From Escherichia coli (GTDB taxonomy: Bacteria; Pseudomonadota; Gammaproteobacteria; Enterobacterales; Enterobacteriaceae), in assembly GCF_011045215.1 (NCBI RefSeq), contig NZ_CP049201.1: 64,000 nucleotides of DNA; one strand, 5' to 3'. Positions within the stretch are counted from its first letter, which is position 1. The number at the start of each line of letters is the position of its first letter. Of this stretch, positions 32,571-41,762 are shown one piece after another. The position numbers were made by a program, and so were the translations under genes. The notes under the pieces were generated by a model that was not told the DNA's origin, did not search any database, and was given only the letters and a program-made list of their open reading frames with translations.

Positions 32571-32622
32571 TATACTATAGGGGGGTATGCTATATGTCAA
32601 TGCATACCCCCCTATAGTATAT
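32571..32622 (-). promoter_or_regulatory. frmRAB promoter/operator: long G/C-tract inverted repeat
   Basis: atactataggggggtatgc ... gcatacccccctatagtat forms a near-perfect palindrome immediately upstream of frmR. Confidence 0.7.
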
Positions 32623-32704
32623 AACACTGGAGAATAATTGTTGTCCGAAGCCTAACCAGGCGAACGGTCCCTCAAGACAGATGGGGACCGTTTATGTGCT
32701 ATTT

Positions 32705-33751
32705 TTATGCCGCATCCGCTAAAACAAACATCCCGTAAGGATGGATTTCGAGGTAATAGTGCTCACCAATATCGGGCTGTAAACGGGTGGCGTTTACTTG
32801 TAATAAAATCTCCTGTCCATGCCACTCTACGGTCACTTCGTACTGCGGCCCCATGTAGGCGACATGGCGAATAACACAACGCTGACTCTCTTCGCCGTGA
32901 TTGCTTAAGGTGATGGCTTCCGGGCGAACGCCGACGGTGCCGCTACCTTGCGCCGGGAAATGCGCCGCGCGCGGCAGGCGATAACCGTAGATATCGACAT
33001 ACTCTTCGCTAAAGTTCGCCGGGAACAGGTTGGCGTCGCCCATAAAACTTGCCATAAATCGGGAGGCTGGCTGACGATAGAGATCCTGCGGTGAGCCAAT
33101 CTGCATGATGTGACCTTTATTCATCACCAGCACAGTGTCGGACACCGCGAAAGCTTCACTTTGATCGTGAGTGACGTAGAGCGACGTGATATTAAACTGC
33201 TTTTGCAGCTCGCGGATCTTATCGCGCATACTGCGGCGCAGGTTGGCATCGAGGTTACTTAACGGCTCATCAAACAGCAGCACCTTTGGCTTGAGGATCA
33301 ACGCGCGGGCCAGTGCCACACGCTGTTGCTGACCACCGGAAATCTGATCGACATAGCGGTCCTCGAAGCCTTCCAGATCCACCATTGCCAGCGCCTCCTT
33401 CACCCGCTGTTTCACTTCGCTACGCGACACGCCAAGCATCTTCAGCCCGTAGCCAACGTTTTCACCCAGCGACATATGCGGGAACAGAGCGTATGACTGA
33501 AACACCATGCAGATATCGCGCTGTTGAATGGAACGATGCGTGACATCTTCGCCATCAATAAAAATTTGCCCTTCGCTCGGTTTTTCCAGCCCGGCAACCA
33601 GACGCAAAATGGTGGTTTTGCCACAGCCGGAAGGACCGAGCAGCGTCACCATTTGCCCTTGTGGAATGGTGAGATTGATATTGTCGATAACCGTATTACT
33701 GCCGAATCGTTTAGTGACGTTGCGCAGTTCAACAAAATTTTTCTGACTCAT
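32705..33751 (-). CDS. afuC: ABC transporter ATP-binding subunit, AfuC/FbpC-type, with a C-terminal TOBE-like domain
   Basis: Walker [13 protein letters not shown] signature [15 protein letters not shown], Walker [12 protein letters not shown]. Start chosen at the second ATG ([12 protein letters not shown]...), which has a GGAG Shine-Dalgarno sequence; the ORF-track ATG at 33763 overlaps the afuB stop as TAATG. Confidence 0.85.
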
Positions 33752-33762
33752 AGTGCGCTCCA

Positions 33763-35841
33763 TTACGCCTGGTTTTTGGCTTTAGAACGGGAGATACGAG
33801 CTTCTCCGATCAGCCAGTCAAAGAGGAAAATAATCGCCAGCATCACCACGATCAGAATCGAACCATAGGCGATGGCTACGCCATATTCGCCGTCTTCAAC
33901 GCGGTTAAGAATGTAGGCGGTTGCCACGCGGGTGTCCGGCGTGACGAGAAAGACGATGGCGCTGACCGTCGTGATGGCCCGCACAAAGCTGTAGATCAGG
34001 GCCGAGAGAATGGCCGGACGCAGCAGCGGCAGTAAAATGTGGGTTATGGTTCGCAAGGAACCCGCGCGCAGGCTGAGTGAGGCTTCATCCAGCGATTTGT
34101 CGATCTGCCCCAGACCCGCAATCCCGGCGCGAATACCCACCGGAACGTTACGCATCACCATCGAGATAATCACAATTGCCGCCGTTCCGGTGAGATAAAC
34201 CGGAGCGCTGTTAAAGGCAAGAATATACGAAACGCCCGCCACCGTACCCGGTACGGCAAAGCACAGCATGGTGGTGAACTCGATGGTCTTTTTGCCTTTG
34301 AATTGTTGACGCACCACCACCCAGGCGATGAGCAGGCCAAAGATAGCGGTAATGGGAGCGGCAATCCCGGCGTAGAGCAGGGTATCCAGCAGTGAAGGCC
34401 ACGCGCCGTCGCTCATTCCCTGACCAAATAGCTTGATAAAGTTATCCAGCGTCAGGGTGTAGTCCACGCCCCAGTTCACCGTGAAGCTGCCGTAGAAAAT
34501 GCTGCCGTAGAGCAGGGCGTTAAAGGCAATCCATATCGCAAGTATGGCGACCACGCTCCACACCAGGGTGACCGGTAGCGGCTGGACGTCGCCACGGTAG
34601 GATTTGCCGGAAACCGTGACGTAAGAGCGTTTACCAATCCACATATACTGGATGCAGAACACCAGCAGCGAGAACAGCAGCAGGAAAGCGCCAAGGGTGC
34701 TGGCGGCCTGATAATCCAGCTGCGAGCCGGTAATATAGAAGTAAATTTGCGTCGCCAGTACGTCGAAGTTACCGCCAAGTACCAGCGGGTTACTGAAATC
34801 AGCCAGTGACTGTACCACGACGATTAAAAAGGCATTGGCGAGTGCGGGCTTTAGCAACGGCACAAACACGCCGTTAAAGGTTTGCCAGCGGCTGGCGCGC
34901 AGGGTGTAGGAGGCCTCTTCCAGCGAGGGATGAATGGTTTTAATGGCCCCGTCGAGGATCATAAATGCCATTGGCGTGAATGCCAGAACCTGTGCCAGCC
35001 AGATCCCGGTAAAACCGTACAGCCAGTTGGTGTTGGTCAGCCCAAACCACTCCACCATAAATTCCGTAACATAGCCGGAGCGCCCCATCATGAGCGTCAC
35101 GCCTAAGCCGACCACAAACGGTGGCGTAACGATGGGCAAAATGGAAAAGATGCGACCAATAATGGCGCTGCGTTTAGCGATGCGCGTGGTATAAATCGCC
35201 AGCACCAGGCCGAAGAAAGTACAGCCTATCCCCACCGCTATCGACAAGACGATAGAGTTGACGATCACCTGAACAATATGTGCCTGCGAGAGCACGGTCA
35301 TAAACGCCAGCGGGGCGAACTCTCCCGCGTCGTTGGTGAACATCGGGATAAAAATGGCGATGCTCGGCCAGACGATAAAAATGCCAATCAGCGCCACAAT
35401 CGCAATCAGTGAGCCGATCACGAAGCGGTCGCCGCCCAGCCATTCGAGGCGGGTTAAGGCCAGCGTCATAATCGCGCCTAGTTCAACAAACAGCACGATG
35501 GCGGCGTAGCCTAAACCGCGTCCAGCCACGGTGGCGCTGATGACGATAAACGCCATACAGAGCAATGCCCAGCTGGCATCAAAATAATGACGACTACGCT
35601 GTTCGCGTGTGACCTCACGAAACGGGCGAACCAGCAACAGACTCGGTAACAAATACCACAGCCAGCTGATATTAAAATGCGACCAGCCATAAGCCTCGAG
35701 GATCTCATCACTCGTGGACTCCAGCAGGCCATAATCGAGGCTCCAGCTCGGCAACAGTATAAATGCCAGCCAGCCCAGCAAAACCCAAAGGAAAATCGCA
35801 TCCCGCTTTTTCACGGGATGGAGTGCAAGTGTCTGTGACAT
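33763..35841 (-). CDS. afuB: ABC transporter permease, fused two-domain FbpB/AfuB type
   Basis: About 692 aa and highly hydrophobic, with duplicated permease halves. Start taken at the ATG giving [14 protein letters not shown]...; the ORF-track start at 35892 is a TTG. Confidence 0.8.
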
Positions 35842-35909
35842 AGCAGTTCCGGTATGGTTGGCCGGGGCAGGCGTTTGTGCTGCACCCGGCAAATACGCCT
35901 AATGCGGGT

Positions 35910-36941
35910 TTATTTACCCATCTTCACTTCGCTGACCCATTTATTAATCAATGCCTTACGAACATCCGTGGAACCATATTTATCCATGTCGTAGTTGATT
36001 AATTTCAGGTCGTCGAGCTTCAGCGAATTTGGCGACGTTTCGGCGGTGGTATTGGTCAGGATCTGATAAGACTTCCCTTTCTTCCACGCCAGTTCCTGAG
36101 CTTCTTTTGATAATACCCAGTCCACAAACAGTTTGGCGTTGTCGAGGTTGCGCGCGCCTTTCAGAATGCTGACGCCGCCAATTTCGTAGCCCGTACCTTC
36201 ACACGGGGAAATCAACTCCAGCGGCGCGCCCTGTTCTTTTTCCAGCGAGTAGTCATGCAGGAAGCCAATACCAATCGCCGTTTCGCCACGGGCGGCGTTA
36301 CGTGCCGGGGCTATGCCTGATTTGGTGTACTGAGAGACGTTGGCGTTCAGTTGTTTTAGATAATCAAAGGCCTGATCTTCCCCCCACAGCTGCGCAAAAG
36401 TAGCCAGGGCGGTGTAGGCAGTACCGGAACTTTGCGGATCGGCAATTTGAATTTCGCCTTTATATTCCGGTTTGGTGAGATCTTTCCAGCACTTCGGCAC
36501 CGGCAGGTTTTTCTCTTTCAGACGATCGGTGTTTACGCCAAAACCGAGGATCCCCACATAAACGGCAGAGGACAGATTCCCTTTCACTTTTGCCGGATCG
36601 CGGAATTTCTCCATGATCTGCTCAAGGTTAGGGGATTTATACGCCTGTAGCAGGCCCATCTCGCCAGCCTGCGATTGCGGGTCTAAAGTGCCGCCGTACC
36701 AGACGTCAGCCTGGGGGTTTTTCTTTTCAGCATCGACTTTTGCCAGGGTGCTTCCGGAACCGTTGCGGATAAACGAGGTTTTTACATCATATTTCTCGCC
36801 AAACGCTTTGGTTTCGGCCTCACACATTTCATTGGTGGCGCTGCAATAGACCACCAGCCGGCCTTTTGCCTGCGCGGCACCCGTTAAAGTCGCCAGCGCA
36901 ACGGCAGAAGCAATCAGAGTAGAGGTAAAGGTCATTTTCAT
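35910..36941 (-). CDS. afuA: Periplasmic substrate-binding protein, AfuA-type (sugar-phosphate/ferric-binding fold family)
   Basis: Start at the ATG at 36941-36939, preceded by AAGGA, giving MKMTFTSTLIASAVALATLTGAAQA-KGR... with a clear signal peptide; 343 aa. The ORF track extends 109 codons upstream with no support. Confidence 0.85.
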   Translation of the reverse strand: MKMTFTSTLIASAVALATLTGAAQAKGRLVVYCSATNEMCEAETKAFGEKYDVKTSFIRNGSGSTLAKVDAEKKNPQADVWYGGTLDPQSQAGEMGLLQAYKSPNLEQIMEKFRDPAKVKGNLSSAVYVGILGFGVNTDRLKEKNLPVPKCWKDLTKPEYKGEIQIADPQSSGTAYTALATFAQLWGEDQAFDYLKQLNANVSQYTKSGIAPARNAARGETAIGIGFLHDYSLEKEQGAPLELISPCEGTGYEIGGVSILKGARNLDNAKLFVDWVLSKEAQELAWKKGKSYQILTNTTAETSPNSLKLDDLKLINYDMDKYGSTDVRKALINKWVSEVKMGK

Positions 36942-38242
36942 TGTTTTATCCTTCGAGCGTGAGTGGTGGTGATGCCCGCCATCAGTAACGGCATCAGCAG
37001 TAAACCCATAAGTACTGCGGCGACCGAGAGTAAACTGAACATTCCCGGCCAGCCGTAGCGTTCGATGACCAGCGACAGCGGCCAGCCTGCCAGCGCCGCG
37101 CCAAGGTAAGCGAACAGGCCGAGAAATCCGGTGATTGAACCCGCCGCAGCTTTGTGCCCACACTCCACCGCCGCAAGTCCAATCAGCATTTGTGGGCCAA
37201 AGACGAAAAAGCCCACGGTAAAAAAGCACACTGCCAGCAGAGCGTAGTGATGAACCGGTGCCAGCCACAGTGCGGCGACTGACACCATCAACCCCAACGT
37301 GAACAGCAAAATCATTGGCGCTCGTTGCCCGCTAAACAGCAAATCCGATCCCCATCCGGCAAATAACGCGCCGAGTAAGCCGCCCACTTCAAACAGCATT
37401 ACCGTGGCGTTGGCGCTGAGCAGGTTGACACCGTGGCTTTCCGTCAGCCAGATATTGCCCCAGTCGTTAAGCGCAATCCGGATCACATAAACCAGTACAT
37501 AAGAGACGCCCAGTAGCCAGATCAGCGGATTTTGCAGCATGGTGGTGCGCAACATTTGCCACAGCCCCATCGGCGGACTTTGTTGTTCCTGACGTAACTC
37601 CAGCGGATCGTGACGCCAGTGACCAACTGTCGGTAATCCCTCTTCCTGGGGCGTGCCTTTGAGTTGTAGCGTTAACCAGATCCCTAATGCCATGCTGATT
37701 ATCCCCGGTGTCAGCATCGCGGCCTGCCAGCCCCACCAGTGGGCGGCAAAGGCGCTAATCAGCGGAATAATCGCTCCGCCAATGTTGATCGACATATTCC
37801 AGCAGCCCCACCAGAAACCGCGCTCATTGCGTGAGTACCAGTGGGTCAGCAAGCGGGCACACGGTGGCCATCCCCAGCCCTGAAAAAAACCGTTCAGTGT
37901 CCAGACCACAAGCAGAAGCGTAAGTGATTCGCCAAAGGCAAACACCACGTTCAATAACCCGGTGGCGAACAAGCCGACGCCCATAAAACCGCGTTGTCCG
38001 TGGCTGTCATGCCACAGTCCGGCGGTAAATTTCGACAATCCGTAGCTGAGATAAAACAGCGAACCCAGCAGGCCAATGTCGCCTTTATCCAGTCCGAGGT
38101 CGGTTTGTAGCGCCGGAAGGACGTAATTCACGCTTTTTCGCGTCAGATAAAATGCGGCGTAGCCAATAATCATGCACATCAGCAATCGCGGACGTAATGT
38201 CCGGTAGCATTGATTAATTTCTCTCGCTGAACGCGCGTGCAT
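36938..38242 (-). CDS. MFS organophosphate:phosphate antiporter-family protein, UhpC-like (probable sugar-phosphate sensor)
   Basis: About 434 aa with UhpC/UhpT-like sequence (...YAAFYLTRKSVNYVLPALQTDLGL...). Its TGA stop overlaps the afuA ATG (ATGA). Start probably at the second ATG (GGAGA Shine-Dalgarno); 38254 is the alternative. Confidence 0.8.
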   Translation of the reverse strand: MHARSAREINQCYRTLRPRLLMCMIIGYAAFYLTRKSVNYVLPALQTDLGLDKGDIGLLGSLFYLSYGLSKFTAGLWHDSHGQRGFMGVGLFATGLLNVVFAFGESLTLLLVVWTLNGFFQGWGWPPCARLLTHWYSRNERGFWWGCWNMSINIGGAIIPLISAFAAHWWGWQAAMLTPGIISMALGIWLTLQLKGTPQEEGLPTVGHWRHDPLELRQEQQSPPMGLWQMLRTTMLQNPLIWLLGVSYVLVYVIRIALNDWGNIWLTESHGVNLLSANATVMLFEVGGLLGALFAGWGSDLLFSGQRAPMILLFTLGLMVSVAALWLAPVHHYALLAVCFFTVGFFVFGPQMLIGLAAVECGHKAAAGSITGFLGLFAYLGAALAGWPLSLVIERYGWPGMFSLLSVAAVLMGLLLMPLLMAGITTTHARRIKQ

Positions 38243-38326
38243 GGTTGTCTCCATGTTGCTGACTATATGAAAATGAAAGTGAAAGGGGATGAGAGAAAAT
38301 CCGGGATACCTAAGACTTTTTCCTGG

Positions 38327-39868
38327 TTATCCGGCGATTTGTTGCAAAAATGTGGGCAAGTTAACAATTACCCGCGTGCCGTGCTGTTTTTCGAGCGTTA
38401 AGTCGCCGCCCAGGGCGCTGACGCGCTCACGCATCCCCTGAATGCCAAATCCGGCCATTTTCCCGCTGGCGATCCCCACACCGTTGTCGCTGACTTCCAG
38501 ATGCAATACCTCTCCCTGCTGGCGCAGGATAATCGTCACTTCGCTGGCTTCGGCGTGTTTACAGATGTTATTGAGCAACTCCTGCAATAACCGATACAAG
38601 GTAAAGCGCACCGTTTCGTTTTCTGGTGTGGAGTTCAGTTGATAGGCAAACTGGCAATGAATGCCGCGTTCACTAAAGGCAAATTCATTAATCAGATGCA
38701 ACAACGCTTCGCGAAATGTCAGTTCATCAAGCGCGGGAGGCCGCAACTGGCGTAGCAATTGGCGGGTGGAGAGATGAATGCGGCGGGCGAGCTCATTGAT
38801 TTGGCTGGCTGCGGATTGAATTTGCGCCGGATCACGCGCCCGCTTCACCAGTTGCGACTGGATCTGAATGGCGGTGATGTTCTGACCGATTTCGTCGTGC
38901 AGCTCTCGCGCCAGGTTTTTTCGCGTGTCCTCCTCGGTGTGGATCAGCTTTTCCGCCAATGCCCGCCGCGCTGCCAGCTCGGCCTCCAGCCGTTGTCGGT
39001 AATGGTGCAGGTTTAGCGCCAGATGTTGCTGGCGACTGATGGCAATGCCCAGGCCAATTCCCAGCAAGGCCTGGGTCGCGAGGAAAATCTCCAGCTCCAC
39101 CAGGTTACTAAAGCCCACGCCAATCTGGCGGGCGATGGTGATCATCATGCTGCCCAAAAGCCCGGAGAGTACGCCACCTTGCCAGCCAAATTTCCACGCC
39201 ATCACCACATTGGGCAAAAAGACCACGATCAACAGCAGACGTTCAATTTCAGGTGACAGCACCATCTGAGTGCCGATACCAATAATAAAAAACAGGCTAC
39301 ACCAGATGATTAAAGAGGTACGCAAGGGGGGATTATGCGTATCGAGTCCCAGGAGCTGGTAGCGATGCTGCTGGCGCAGAAACTCAAAGATAAGATAGAC
39401 AAACGGCGTCAGTAATACGCCGCCGGTAAATGAGGTCAAACCCGGCAGCATTATTGGGCCCGACATAAAAGGGGAGAGCAGGGCGGTATTCAACAATGAA
39501 GCTGCCGTGACAGTGGCTAACAGCAACGTCAGACGCTGCCAGTAAAGTGGAAAACGGTGCCAGAAGTTTTGCGCAAGGAGGACAGGAAACAGGCTAATAA
39601 CCGGCGTTGCCAGCATGAGATAACCGTTCAATAGCTGTTCACTATGGAGCCAGAACATCATCAGCAAAGGGGGGAGCACCAACGCAGGCCAGTAGCGGCG
39701 AGAGAGCAAAATAACAAGGGCGAGATAAACTCCCTGAGGGAGAAACAACACTGCCTGTTGACCGTTATTGGTCAGATAAAAGCTGAGCGTCCACAGCATC
39801 AGCCAGCCGGTTCCCCAGGCCAGCACAATAAACAGCGAAATCACCCAATGACGAAGATTGCGCGACAT
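38327..39868 (-). CDS. Membrane sensor histidine kinase, UhpB-like (MASE1 N-terminal domain, HisKA_3, HATPase)
   Basis: 513 aa with about 8 N-terminal transmembrane helices, an H-box RELHDEIGQNITAIQ, and ATPase motifs DNGVGI...GFGIQGMRERV. Confidence 0.85.
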   Translation of the reverse strand: MSRNLRHWVISLFIVLAWGTGWLMLWTLSFYLTNNGQQAVLFLPQGVYLALVILLSRRYWPALVLPPLLMMFWLHSEQLLNGYLMLATPVISLFPVLLAQNFWHRFPLYWQRLTLLLATVTAASLLNTALLSPFMSGPIMLPGLTSFTGGVLLTPFVYLIFEFLRQQHRYQLLGLDTHNPPLRTSLIIWCSLFFIIGIGTQMVLSPEIERLLLIVVFLPNVVMAWKFGWQGGVLSGLLGSMMITIARQIGVGFSNLVELEIFLATQALLGIGLGIAISRQQHLALNLHHYRQRLEAELAARRALAEKLIHTEEDTRKNLARELHDEIGQNITAIQIQSQLVKRARDPAQIQSAASQINELARRIHLSTRQLLRQLRPPALDELTFREALLHLINEFAFSERGIHCQFAYQLNSTPENETVRFTLYRLLQELLNNICKHAEASEVTIILRQQGEVLHLEVSDNGVGIASGKMAGFGIQGMRERVSALGGDLTLEKQHGTRVIVNLPTFLQQIAG

Positions 39869-40497
39869 TAATGCCCCGCCAGCAGATGGTGGTCGAGCGC
39901 AAAATGTACCAGTTCAATGGTGCTATGGCAGTTCAGTTTTCCCAGCACATTGGCGCGATGCACATGTACCGTTTTATGACTGAGTTCGAGTTTAAAGGCG
40001 ATCTCTTTAACGCTGTCTCCTTTGACCAGTAAATCAAACACTTCACGTTCTCGTGGGGTGAGAATTTCTAGCGCCTGGGCGGGTTGCCCGCCGCCGCGTA
40101 AAGCCCGAATCGCATCGGCACAGAGATAATGCCCGCCCAGCCCGACCGAGCGCACCGCCTGTACTAACTCTTCCGGCCCACAGCGTTTGGTTAAATACCC
40201 GCTGGCACCAGCATCCAGCGCGCTTTGCACAAAGGTTGGCGCGTCATAAATGCTAAGAATAATGGCGCGAAATTGCGGTTTTTGTGCACGCAGGCGCTTA
40301 AGCAAACTGAGGCCGTTTTCGTCCGGCATGGCAATATCAATGACGGCAACATTGACGTCATCACGGATTAATGCCGACCATGCCTGCGCGGCACTACTGT
40401 ACTGACCAATGACCTCCAGATCGTCTTCCAGAGAGAGTAATTGTGCGAAGCCAGAGCGCACCACCACATGGTCATCCACCAGCACTACCCGAATCAT
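39868..40497 (-). CDS. Response regulator, UhpA-like (NarL/LuxR family)
   Basis: 209 aa, MIRVVLVDDHVVVRSGFAQLL... receiver domain plus a C-terminal LuxR HTH (TPREREVFDLLVKGDSVKEIAFKLELSHKTVHVHRANVLGKL). Its TAA stop overlaps the kinase ATG (TAATG). Confidence 0.85.
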   Translation of the reverse strand: MIRVVLVDDHVVVRSGFAQLLSLEDDLEVIGQYSSAAQAWSALIRDDVNVAVIDIAMPDENGLSLLKRLRAQKPQFRAIILSIYDAPTFVQSALDAGASGYLTKRCGPEELVQAVRSVGLGGHYLCADAIRALRGGGQPAQALEILTPREREVFDLLVKGDSVKEIAFKLELSHKTVHVHRANVLGKLNCHSTIELVHFALDHHLLAGH

Positions 40498-40799
40498 ACT
40501 TTTCTTCTCTTATTATCTAATTCTCCTATCATGCATCACGGCGCGGCGCTGGCAATCAACCAGCGACAGATATGGAATGGATGTAACAAAATGGCAATAA
40601 TTTGCCGGAGCGCACACATCTTATCTGGCTTGTGAACCGGCGGGATACGTTCGCCAAAACCGCAAAATGCGCAAACTCGCTAACCATTGCCGATTTTTTT
40701 CTAAAAACGCTTTGTTCTTAACAAGACCTTTTAATTCCTTTATCAAACTGACCCGCAACGAAATACTGCTCCCATAACAAGACAGGGGAGCAGACAATC

Positions 40800-41762
40800 A
40801 TGGCAATTTCATCGCGTAACACTCTTCTTGCCGCACTGGCATTCATCGCTTTTCAGGCGCAGGCGGTGAACGTCACCGTGGCGTATCAAACCTCAGCCGA
40901 ACCGGCGAAAGTGGCTCAGGCTGATAACACCTTTGCCAAAGAGAGCGGGGCGAACGTGGACTGGCGCAAGTTTGACAGCGGAGCCAGCATCGTGCGGGCG
41001 CTGGCTTCAGGCGATGTGCAAATCGGCAACCTCGGTTCCAGCCCGTTAGCGGTTGCAGCCAGCCAACAGGTGCCGATTGAAGTCTTCTTGCTGGCGTCAA
41101 AACTGGGTAACTCCGAAGCGCTGGTGGTAAAGAAAACTATCAGCAAACCCGAGGATCTGATTGGCAAACGCATCGCAGTGCCGTTTATCTCCACCACCCA
41201 CTACAGCCTGCTGGCGGCGCTGAAACACTGGGGCATTAAACCCGGGCAAGTGGAGATTGTGAACCTGCAGCCGCCCGCGATTATCGCTGCCTGGCAGCGG
41301 GGAGATATTGATGGTGCTTATGTCTGGGCACCGGCGGTTAACGCCCTGGAAAAAGACGGCAAGGTGTTGACCGATTCTGAACAGGTCGGGCAGTGGGGCG
41401 CGCCAACGCTGGACGTTTGGGTGGTGCGCAAAGATTTTGCCGAGAAACATCCTGAGGTCGTGAAAGCGTTCGCTAAAAGCGCCATCGATGCTCAGCAACC
41501 GTACATTGCTAACCCAGACGTGTGGCTGAAACAGCCGGAAAACATCAGCAAACTGGCGCGTTTAAGCGGCGTGCCTGAAGGTGACGTTCCGGGGCTGGTG
41601 AAGGGGAATACCTATCTGACGCCGCAGCAACAAACGGCAGAACTGACCGGACCGGTGAACAAAGCGATCATCGACACCGCGCAGTTTTTGAAAGAGCAGG
41701 GCAAGGTCCCGGCTGTAGCGAATGATTACAGCCAGTACGTTACCTCGCGCTTCGTGCAATAA
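40800..41762 (+). CDS. tauA: Taurine ABC transporter periplasmic binding protein
   Basis: 320-aa ORF with a signal peptide, MAISSRNTLLAALAFIAFQAQA... Confidence 0.93.
   Translation: MAISSRNTLLAALAFIAFQAQAVNVTVAYQTSAEPAKVAQADNTFAKESGANVDWRKFDSGASIVRALASGDVQIGNLGSSPLAVAASQQVPIEVFLLASKLGNSEALVVKKTISKPEDLIGKRIAVPFISTTHYSLLAALKHWGIKPGQVEIVNLQPPAIIAAWQRGDIDGAYVWAPAVNALEKDGKVLTDSEQVGQWGAPTLDVWVVRKDFAEKHPEVVKAFAKSAIDAQQPYIANPDVWLKQPENISKLARLSGVPEGDVPGLVKGNTYLTPQQQTAELTGPVNKAIIDTAQFLKEQGKVPAVANDYSQYVTSRFVQ

Follow-up and report, generated by a model that had tools for sequence, protein, structure and literature searches.

Where does a Uhp-type sensory system keep its regulated promoter when the gene for its putative sensor runs directly into the gene for a substrate-binding protein? 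This question is raised by a locus on the minus strand of a 64,000-nucleotide (nt) stretch of Escherichia coli DNA (contig NZ_CP049201.1 of assembly GCF_011045215.1), which we refer to as the window. In this locus, genes for a UhpA-like response regulator, a UhpB-like kinase and a UhpC-like sensor (designated here uhpA', uhpB' and uhpC') are followed by the transporter genes afuA, afuB and afuC (Table 1). We consider it likely that the locus is a Uhp-type module with an ATP-binding cassette (ABC) importer as its output, in which the regulated promoter has been relocated to the 5' side of the sensor gene and uhpC'-afuABC forms one regulated operon. The original prediction made for this DNA had named two candidate sites for the regulated promoter, a gap of 72-85 bp at 38243-38326 and the region 40498-40799, and the coordinates of both are right.

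The first of these candidates is strongly supported: phylogenetic footprints in the gap between uhpB' and uhpC' and in the last 40 nt of uhpB' outline an element that resembles the K-12 uhpT promoter and shares its geometry. The gap measures 84 nt (38243-38326) when counted from the uhpC' ATG at 38242 and 72 nt from the ATG at 38254; it is 75-96 nt long in nearly all afu-linked clusters, whereas uhpB and uhpC of K-12 are 9 nt apart. Related loci were collected by an AfuA scan of one genome per species, which yielded 80 Enterobacterales loci, and the footprint alignment comprised 75 distinct uhpB'-uhpC' gap sequences. Conservation in this alignment is concentrated in short boxes, whereas the spacers between them have column entropies of 1.0-1.6 bits and the four-fold synonymous sites of the flanking genes of 1.16-1.28 bits. 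The CRP-like site within the end of uhpB' has a mean column entropy of 0.14 bits, its synonymous positions being almost invariant, compared with about 1.2 bits at four-fold sites. Downstream of it follow a 17-bp palindrome-type box (mean entropy 0.31 bits), which is unique in the window and, in Buttiauxella and Erwinia, perfectly palindromic (CCAGGAAnAATTCCTGG), and a box that contains TCTCA (0.09 bits); the two correspond to the strong and the weak UhpA site, respectively, of the uhpT promoter. In the -10 hexamer (0.38 bits) the T, the A and the final T are invariant, and other genera read TACAGT or TACACT. No -35 element stands at the right spacing from TATAGT, the position reading ATCCCC.

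The K-12 uhpT promoter contains, in this order, the sequences GTGATGCATCTCAC, CTAAGAAATTTTCCAGG, TCTCAGGCC and TACAAT. We take GTGATGCATCTCAC to be the CAP site at -103.5, CTAAGAAATTTTCCAGG to be the strong UhpA region near -64, TCTCAGGCC to be the weak region that replaces the -35 element, and TACAAT to be the -10 hexamer; in the work of Merkel, Olekhnovich and Kadner, the UhpA sites reportedly extend from -80 to -32. The distances in the two promoters agree closely. From the centre of the CRP site to the first base of the -10 hexamer there are 91.5 nt both in K-12 and here, from the centre of the 17-bp box 52 nt in K-12 and 51 nt here, and from the start of TCTCA 27 nt in each. The half-sites of the 17-bp box are CTAAGAA and CCTGGAA in K-12 (CTAAGAAATTTTCCAGG; L082, 2755-2771) and CCAGGAA and CTAAGAC here, with one base difference each. 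Judged by its sequence, then, a promoter of the uhpT type lies 5' of uhpC': it lacks a -35 element and has a putative CAP site near -103.5 and, between -80 and -32, a strong and a weak putative regulator site. A review gives the layout of the uhpT promoter as a strong site upstream, a weak site downstream and CRP further upstream.

The likeness to the K-12 uhpABC-uhpT system thus covers the promoter (CRP site, 17-bp palindrome-type site and TCTCA box at matching distances, and no -35 element) as well as the genes, which in both cases specify a NarL-type regulator, a MASE1 kinase and a major facilitator superfamily (MFS) sensor in the order A-B-C, with overlapping regulator and kinase genes. 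The differences concern the output and its wiring. In K-12 the target is the UhpT antiporter, whereas here it would be the ATP-driven importer AfuABC; the regulated promoter of K-12 lies 3' of the sensor gene, in a uhpC-uhpT gap of 137 nt, whereas here it is predicted 5' of the sensor gene, in the 84-nt gap, and afuA overlaps uhpC'; and K-12 uhpC belongs to the constitutive uhpABC unit, whereas uhpC' would belong to the regulated operon. In strains with both systems, the like half-sites and the common core of the recognition helix could permit cross-regulation between UhpA and the regulator of the island.

A composite pattern (palindrome, 13-18 nt, TCTCA, 22 nt, TAnnnT) was scanned on both strands of 2.4 Mb of sequence. 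It gave one match each in 80 of 83 sequences, lying in every case just 5' of uhpC' or, in K-12, of uhpT; neither strand of the 2.4 Mb showed a second copy elsewhere. The three misses are accounted for by an insertion in the promoter, by the lack of upstream sequence and by a TCTCC variant. In the Raoultella planticola locus (L011), the uhpB'-uhpC' gap is 278 nt long instead of about 84 nt, and its -10 region (CTATA...TATAGTC) is interrupted by about 194 nt of inserted sequence. This insertion, which contains ...AATCCCCAGGAGCTTACATAAGTAAGTGACTGGGGTGAGT..., would part the regulator boxes from the -10 hexamer; it may be an enterobacterial repetitive intergenic consensus or intergenic repeat unit (ERIC/IRU). 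A comparison by eye of the palindrome with the FusR site of the ler promoter found only a GAATAAT core in common, to which we give no weight.

The products of the six genes fit a Uhp-type module coupled to an importer. The uhpC' product scores 587.7 bits with the NCBIfam UhpC subfamily model NF008661, above the cut-off of 564, and 213.8 bits with the UhpT model, below the cut-off of 497; its identity to K-12 UhpC is 53%, that to UhpT 29%. For the uhpA' product the best NCBIfam match is UhpA (193.4 bits, below the cut-off of 258), with 48% identity to K-12 UhpA and an identical recognition-helix core, KTVHVHRAN. For the uhpB' product, named a MASE1 sensor kinase by the Prokaryotic Genome Annotation Pipeline (PGAP), it is UhpB (381.7 bits, below the cut-off of 408), with 35% identity to K-12 UhpB over the full length. 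Because both scores lie below the equivalog cut-offs, the two proteins are to be classed as paralogues of UhpA and UhpB and not as equivalogs. AfuA matches the A. pleuropneumoniae AfuA structures (PDB 4R72-4R75) with an E-value of 1.5e-169, and contains the motif FLHDYSLE...CEGTGYE; its ligand residues, H229, D230 and E253 in the precursor, are H205, D206 and E229 in mature numbering. The island contains no uhpT-like gene.

The longest open reading frame (ORF) for uhpC' has 438 codons (38254..36938), and PGAP places the start at 38242. The ATG at 38242-38240 is the conserved start; the upstream ATG at 38254 overlaps the GGAG motif and is missing in most genera, which read AAACGGAG there. In an mRNA from the predicted promoter, the upstream ATG would fall at the extreme 5' end.

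Table 1. Features of the island in the window, listed from the regulator end (all on the minus strand; PGAP, Prokaryotic Genome Annotation Pipeline; EHEC, enterohaemorrhagic E. coli).
Feature	Coordinates	Strand	Remarks
Promoter of uhpA'-uhpB'	40528..40588	minus	TGTTAC box 40588-40573; -35 TTGCCA 40555-40550; 16-nt spacer; -10 CATGAT 40533-40528
uhpA', UhpA-like NarL/FixJ response regulator gene	39868..40497	minus	position of EHEC fusR/Z0463
uhpB', UhpB-like MASE1 histidine kinase gene	38327..39868	minus	position of EHEC fusK/Z0462; 1-nt overlap with uhpA'
CRP-like site TGTTAACTTGCCCACA	38351..38366	minus	inside the 3' end of uhpB'; centre 91.5 nt 5' of -10
17-bp palindrome-type box CCAGGAAAAAGTCTTAG	38310..38326	minus	directly 3' of the uhpB' stop; centre 51 nt 5' of -10
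Invariant box TCTCATCC	38287..38294	minus	holds TCTCA; starts 27 nt 5' of -10; at the place of -35
-10 hexamer TATAGT	38262..38267	minus	predicted transcription start about 38254-38257
Shine-Dalgarno and start codon of uhpC'	38240..38252	minus	GGAG 38252-38249 and ATG 38242-38240; both conserved in the alignment
uhpC', UhpC-like MFS gene	36938..38242	minus	same RefSeq protein as EHEC Z0461
uhpC'/afuA junction	36938..36953	minus	AAGGA 36953-36949; 7-nt spacer TAAAACA; ATGA 36941-36938
afuA, periplasmic sugar-phosphate-binding protein gene	35910..36941	minus	343 residues with signal peptide
afuB, fused double ABC permease gene	33763..35841	minus	692 amino acids with PGAP start
afuC, ABC ATPase gene	32705..33763 (PGAP start 33751)	minus	NCBIfam NF008513, 699.5 bits, above the cut-off of 496

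Because the accession WP_000543352.1 is common to Z0461 of strain EDL933 and to the EC974 locus, which the uhpC' product matches at 100% by tblastn, the locus can be identified as the EHEC island OI-20, with fusR (Z0463), fusK (Z0462), z0461 and afuABC. The original prediction had not made this link to a published island. AfuABC is known as a sugar-phosphate importer (Sit et al., 2015), and afuABC is present on OI-20 of EHEC and in Citrobacter rodentium (PMC4546632). Transport of glucose-6-phosphate (G6P), fructose-6-phosphate (F6P) and sedoheptulose-7-phosphate (S7P) was demonstrated for the systems of Actinobacillus pleuropneumoniae and C. rodentium, the sugar-phosphate motif H205/D206/E229 was defined, and AfuABC was found to give C. 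rodentium a competitive advantage (PMC4546632). The island genes resemble this system in the homology of AfuA, in the H205/D206/E229 motif and in the fused permease and ATPase encoded downstream. On regulation, Sit et al. place FusKR only in "close genetic proximity" and say nothing on a promoter or an operon, the word "promoter" occurring 0 times (PMC4546632).

A different role has been assigned to the regulatory genes of this island. Together with Z0461, FusKR is described as a two-component system that senses fucose (PMC11644481, PMC6199705 and PMC5120142, citing Pacheco et al., 2012), and in one of these accounts Z0461 is a fucose transporter repressed by FusKR (PMC6199705). The genes are the same as those analyzed here; whereas the literature, as far as these accounts convey it, has a fucose transporter under repression, our analysis points to a UhpC-type protein in an afuABC operon with a promoter of the activation type. 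Profile scores place Z0461 with organophosphate sensors and antiporters and not with FucP-type permeases. RNA sequencing (RNA-seq) of EHEC in bovine gut contents found Z0459 (afuB), Z0461, Z0462 and Z0463 all rising, which is compatible with a regulated uhpC'-afuABC operon and is not discriminating.

These reports bear on the sign of the regulation. The conserved boxes of the gap might serve as an operator for repression by FusR, with uhpC'-afuABC being transcribed mainly by read-through from upstream or from TATAGT when the regulator is inactive; we regard this as unlikely, though not negligible. Such an operator would agree with the repression of z0461 and of fuc genes by FusKR in fucose minimal medium that PMC6199705 relates from Pacheco et al. 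(2012), with the fact that no convincing terminator separates uhpB' from uhpC', and with the joint rise of all four measured island genes in gut contents. Yet the promoter has no -35 element, its boxes stand where the uhpT promoter has its activating sites for UhpA and CAP, a repressor operator more usually overlaps the -10 hexamer or the start site, and only activation would account for a CRP-like site kept at -103.5. A terminator between uhpB' and uhpC' was considered and rejected: the sole match (38375-38354) is weak, and terminator-like matches are no more numerous in the region than in shuffled sequences.

How afuABC is reached from this promoter depends on the uhpC'-afuA junction, from which the original prediction had started. 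On the minus strand it reads ...CGAAGGATAAAACAATGAAAATGACC... / ...CTCGAAGGATAAAACAATGAAAATGACCTTT... (ORF 38254/38242..36938 and afuA). The description given there was exact: the TGA stop codon of uhpC' (36940-36938) shares bases with the afuA ATG (36941-36939) in a 4-nt ATGA overlap, and an AAGGA motif is present 7 nt 5' of this ATG, inside the uhpC' coding sequence. The afuA start is this first ATG, at which all related loci keep ATGAAA; conservation does not extend to the second ATG (36935-36933). In itself the overlap is ordinary, being not above chance and of the commonest type of operon junction. Nearby, mhpF/mhpE, tauB/tauC and tauC/tauD likewise share 4 nt, and uhpA'/uhpB' share 1 nt; ordinary bacterial ATGA overlaps combine, just as uhpC'/afuA does, the 4-nt overlap with a Shine-Dalgarno sequence inside the upstream gene, and nothing sets uhpC'/afuA apart from them.

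Among 78 related loci, the distance between uhpC' and afuA is -4 (ATGA) in 23 and -1 (TAATG) in nine; it is +4 to +20 nt in about 35 loci and 35 to 60 nt in about 14. The junction measures at most 60 nt in 76 of the 78, the exceptions being two Yersinia loci (Yersinia nurmii, L078; Y. aldovae, L081), the only ones with a gap of 157-160 nt, which is without the Uhp-type box pattern. The afuA Shine-Dalgarno sequence (AAGGA or AAGG) is conserved across all loci, whereas only the 23 and the nine loci just mentioned have an overlap, and the C-terminal tail of the uhpC' product varies freely in length and sequence. Because the overlap is variable while the junction stays short across the loci, the conserved feature of this junction is the tight linkage of uhpC' and afuA and not their overlap.

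Alternatively, the overlap would be just compact packing and afuABC would be expressed independently of the sensor from a promoter of its own in the 3' part of uhpC', an arrangement that we consider quite unlikely. Promoters inside coding sequences are common, the strong Shine-Dalgarno sequence of afuA makes coupling unneeded, a binding protein is usually needed in far larger amounts than a membrane sensor, and the Yersinia loci do have the longer gap. However, the promoter scan gave no sigma-70-like match on the minus strand inside uhpC' (36941-38242), and no locus has the Uhp-type box pattern inside uhpC'. Nor is there a dip in synonymous variation at the 3' end of uhpC', where the four-fold entropy of the last windows (1.03-1.22 bits) stays within the range of the gene (0.93-1.32 bits) and the sensor tail varies freely. 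Together with the short junction in all but two of the loci and the lack of a second Uhp-type pattern, these results support the claim of the original prediction that uhpC' and afuA are co-transcribed.

A role for the palindrome 3' of the uhpB' stop as an RNA hairpin that ends or stabilizes the regulator-kinase mRNA, in place of a DNA site, is very improbable and was rejected for the majority form of the box: Buttiauxella, Erwinia and Rahnella have a perfect 7-3-7 palindrome with a predicted -6 to -8 kcal/mol, and the CC..GG and CT..AG variants co-vary, but the commonest form (45 of the 75 distinct sequences, including that of E. coli) has 5 of 7 pairs and is unfolded (0.0 kcal/mol), yet is conserved base for base, no T-run follows the box, and the invariant TCTCATCC and the fixed distances to the -10 hexamer would be left unexplained.

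From the gene order, the junction lengths, the elements and geometry of the promoter and its occurrence at a single place, we propose the following course of expression for a relocated Uhp-type promoter. A sigma-70-type promoter of their own, at about 40528-40555, would serve uhpA' and uhpB'. In the 84-nt gap, a second promoter would combine the CRP-like site at about -103.5, the strong 17-bp site at about -63, the weak TCTCA site and the -10 hexamer TATAGT; because the position of its -35 element reads ATCCCC, it is predicted to be activator-dependent. Activated by the phosphorylated regulator and CRP, it would give rise to a single mRNA for uhpC'-afuABC, which is most likely the regulated unit. 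Since there is neither room nor signal for a promoter between uhpC' and afuA, afuA would be translated from the uhpC' mRNA by means of its own AAGGA inside the end of uhpC', and ribosomes that end at the TGA could also restart at the ATG. A basal amount of sensor could come from read-through of the regulator-kinase transcript, which is plausible because there is only a weak terminator match between uhpB' and uhpC'. With the sensor lying inside the operon that it helps to induce, positive feedback would result. The inducer would most likely be one of the sugar phosphates that AfuA binds (G6P, F6P or S7P).

Several points weigh against this proposal. FusKR is reported to repress z0461, whereas activation is what the architecture, with its boxes at -63 and -39 and no -35 element, would predict. 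Z0462 and Z0463 increase too in the RNA-seq data, so that the two transcription units are not separated. The CRP-like site sits in codons for conserved residues, and its conservation is in part protein-driven. The composite pattern was designed with knowledge of the K-12 and afu-type promoters; its K-12 match is not independent, whereas the distances and the conservation are. The 157-160-nt gap of the two Yersinia loci could hold an extra promoter. 

The original prediction had further concluded from the overlap that uhpC' and afuA are translationally coupled. What holds is the stop/start overlap with a Shine-Dalgarno sequence inside uhpC'; the coupling itself is weakened by an overlap that is not family-wide, by the strong Shine-Dalgarno sequence of afuA and by the unstructured RNA. 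Folding revealed no RNA structure that would mask the afuA Shine-Dalgarno sequence (z-score 0.67), and obligatory coupling through such masking was rejected because the region is unstructured; relatives work with gaps of 4-60 nt. Since the overlap is variable, the Shine-Dalgarno sequence strong in every locus and the RNA unstructured, coupling appears possible and not required, and independent initiation at afuA equally possible. The "fixed co-expression" of sensor and transporter was overstated: the hairpin between afuA and afuB and the separate Shine-Dalgarno sequence of afuA permit different protein ratios. This GC-rich hairpin (GCCGGGTGCAGCACAAACGCCTGCCCCGGC) lies 3' of afuA in the afuA-afuB gap (35842-35909, minus strand), and its stability against shuffled sequences is not significant (z-score -0.91); the length of the gap varies among loci from about 65 to 190 nt. 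Hairpins of this kind in ABC operons often shift the balance towards more binding protein relative to permease.

The second candidate site, 40498-40799, is the 302-nt divergent intergenic region between uhpA' and tauA. The original prediction was right in so far as a conserved promoter is present there; it is of the sigma-70 type and without Uhp-type boxes. The promoter scan detected it, and its elements are conserved from E. coli to Yersinia; the promoter at 40528-40555 is best read as that of the regulator-kinase unit. The pattern scan of the region found no Uhp-type boxes 5' of uhpA', and autoregulation through such boxes was rejected. A TGTTAC(A/T) box at 40588-40573, about 60 nt 5' of the predicted start, resembles half a CRP site. 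As a class I CRP site it would have its centre 47.5 nt 5' of the -10 hexamer, at about -59.5, which is off the usual -61.5, and no claim is made for it.

What FusKR and Z0461 sense and control becomes a testable question in view of this arrangement. More tentatively than the operon itself, we suggest that the "fucose sensor" FusKR with Z0461 could be primarily a Uhp-type sugar-phosphate system, in which Z0461 acts as co-sensor for the MASE1 kinase and the regulator and CRP activate z0461-afuABC in a self-amplifying manner. If so, tests of the kinase alone with glucose-6-phosphate would have missed the signal, the sensor partner being missing; the effects on fucose use and on the virulence genes of the enterocyte effacement locus (LEE) would be secondary targets or cross-talk; and phenotypes of z0461 deletions could be partly polar on afuABC, because the afuA ribosome-binding site lies in the last 16 nt of z0461. 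If uhpC'-afuABC is one operon behind a Uhp-type promoter assisted by CRP, z0461 deletions need to be checked for such polarity, and the natural trigger and main output are worth re-examining with sugar phosphates and with Z0461 present. A sensor inside the operon that it induces would differ from the textbook Uhp system and predict hysteresis in addition to positive feedback, and the conserved boxes offer a concrete, mutable target for experiments. The island matters in gut colonization, FusKR is much cited as an example of how a pathogen senses a sugar that the microbiota releases, and it is now used in therapeutic design (PMC12976359). In our literature search, uhpC and afuA occurred together only in Sit et al., and nothing was found on the operon structure of z0461-z0463 or on FusK with UhpB. 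The arrangement adds a further variant to the known Uhp system; import by AfuABC and its location on OI-20 have already been published.

The island is also more widespread than its description suggests. According to a review, EHEC O157:H7 alone carries FusKR. The window matches E. coli chromosomes at 99.8% identity, and of 5426 complete E. coli genomes 518 have the 8.3-kb block (window 32600-40900) nearly in its entirety, among them isolates of urinary, poultry and mink origin. Because these genomes and dozens of other genera carry it, the FusKR island is not confined to O157:H7, in contradiction to the review, and is widespread in Enterobacterales. The loci come from Citrobacter, Klebsiella, Raoultella, Enterobacter, Lelliottia, Leclercia, Serratia, Buttiauxella, Rahnella, Erwinia, Pantoea, Brenneria, Yersinia and others, and the order uhpA'-uhpB'-uhpC'-afuA-afuB-afuC is kept in every one of the 80 Enterobacterales loci with enough flank, and also in Photorhabdus and Pectobacterium. 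Across the cassettes of dozens of Enterobacterales genera, AfuA is 85-99% identical. The AfuA of Serratia marcescens is about 95% identical; this very high value suggests horizontal transfer. In the window, the island adjoins frmR on one side and tauA on the other.

The word-indexed protein search, aimed at contexts in Vibrio and Pasteurellaceae, returned only AfuA relatives of at least 79% identity. In V. cholerae, uhpABC probably lies beside an afu-like transporter. Representatives with 72%, 54% and 48% identity gave short or unlinked contexts, and those with 72% and 54% (L085 and L086) are without nearby uhpABC-like genes. Because the more distant relatives at 72% and 54% are not beside uhpABC-like genes, the six-gene cassette is apparently a feature of this Enterobacterales clade. 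In one of the L085 and L086 contexts, a tandem pair of binding-protein genes comes after udk/dcd-like genes; in the other, the binding-protein gene stands alone, preceded by a metallophosphatase gene and an Opp-like transporter.

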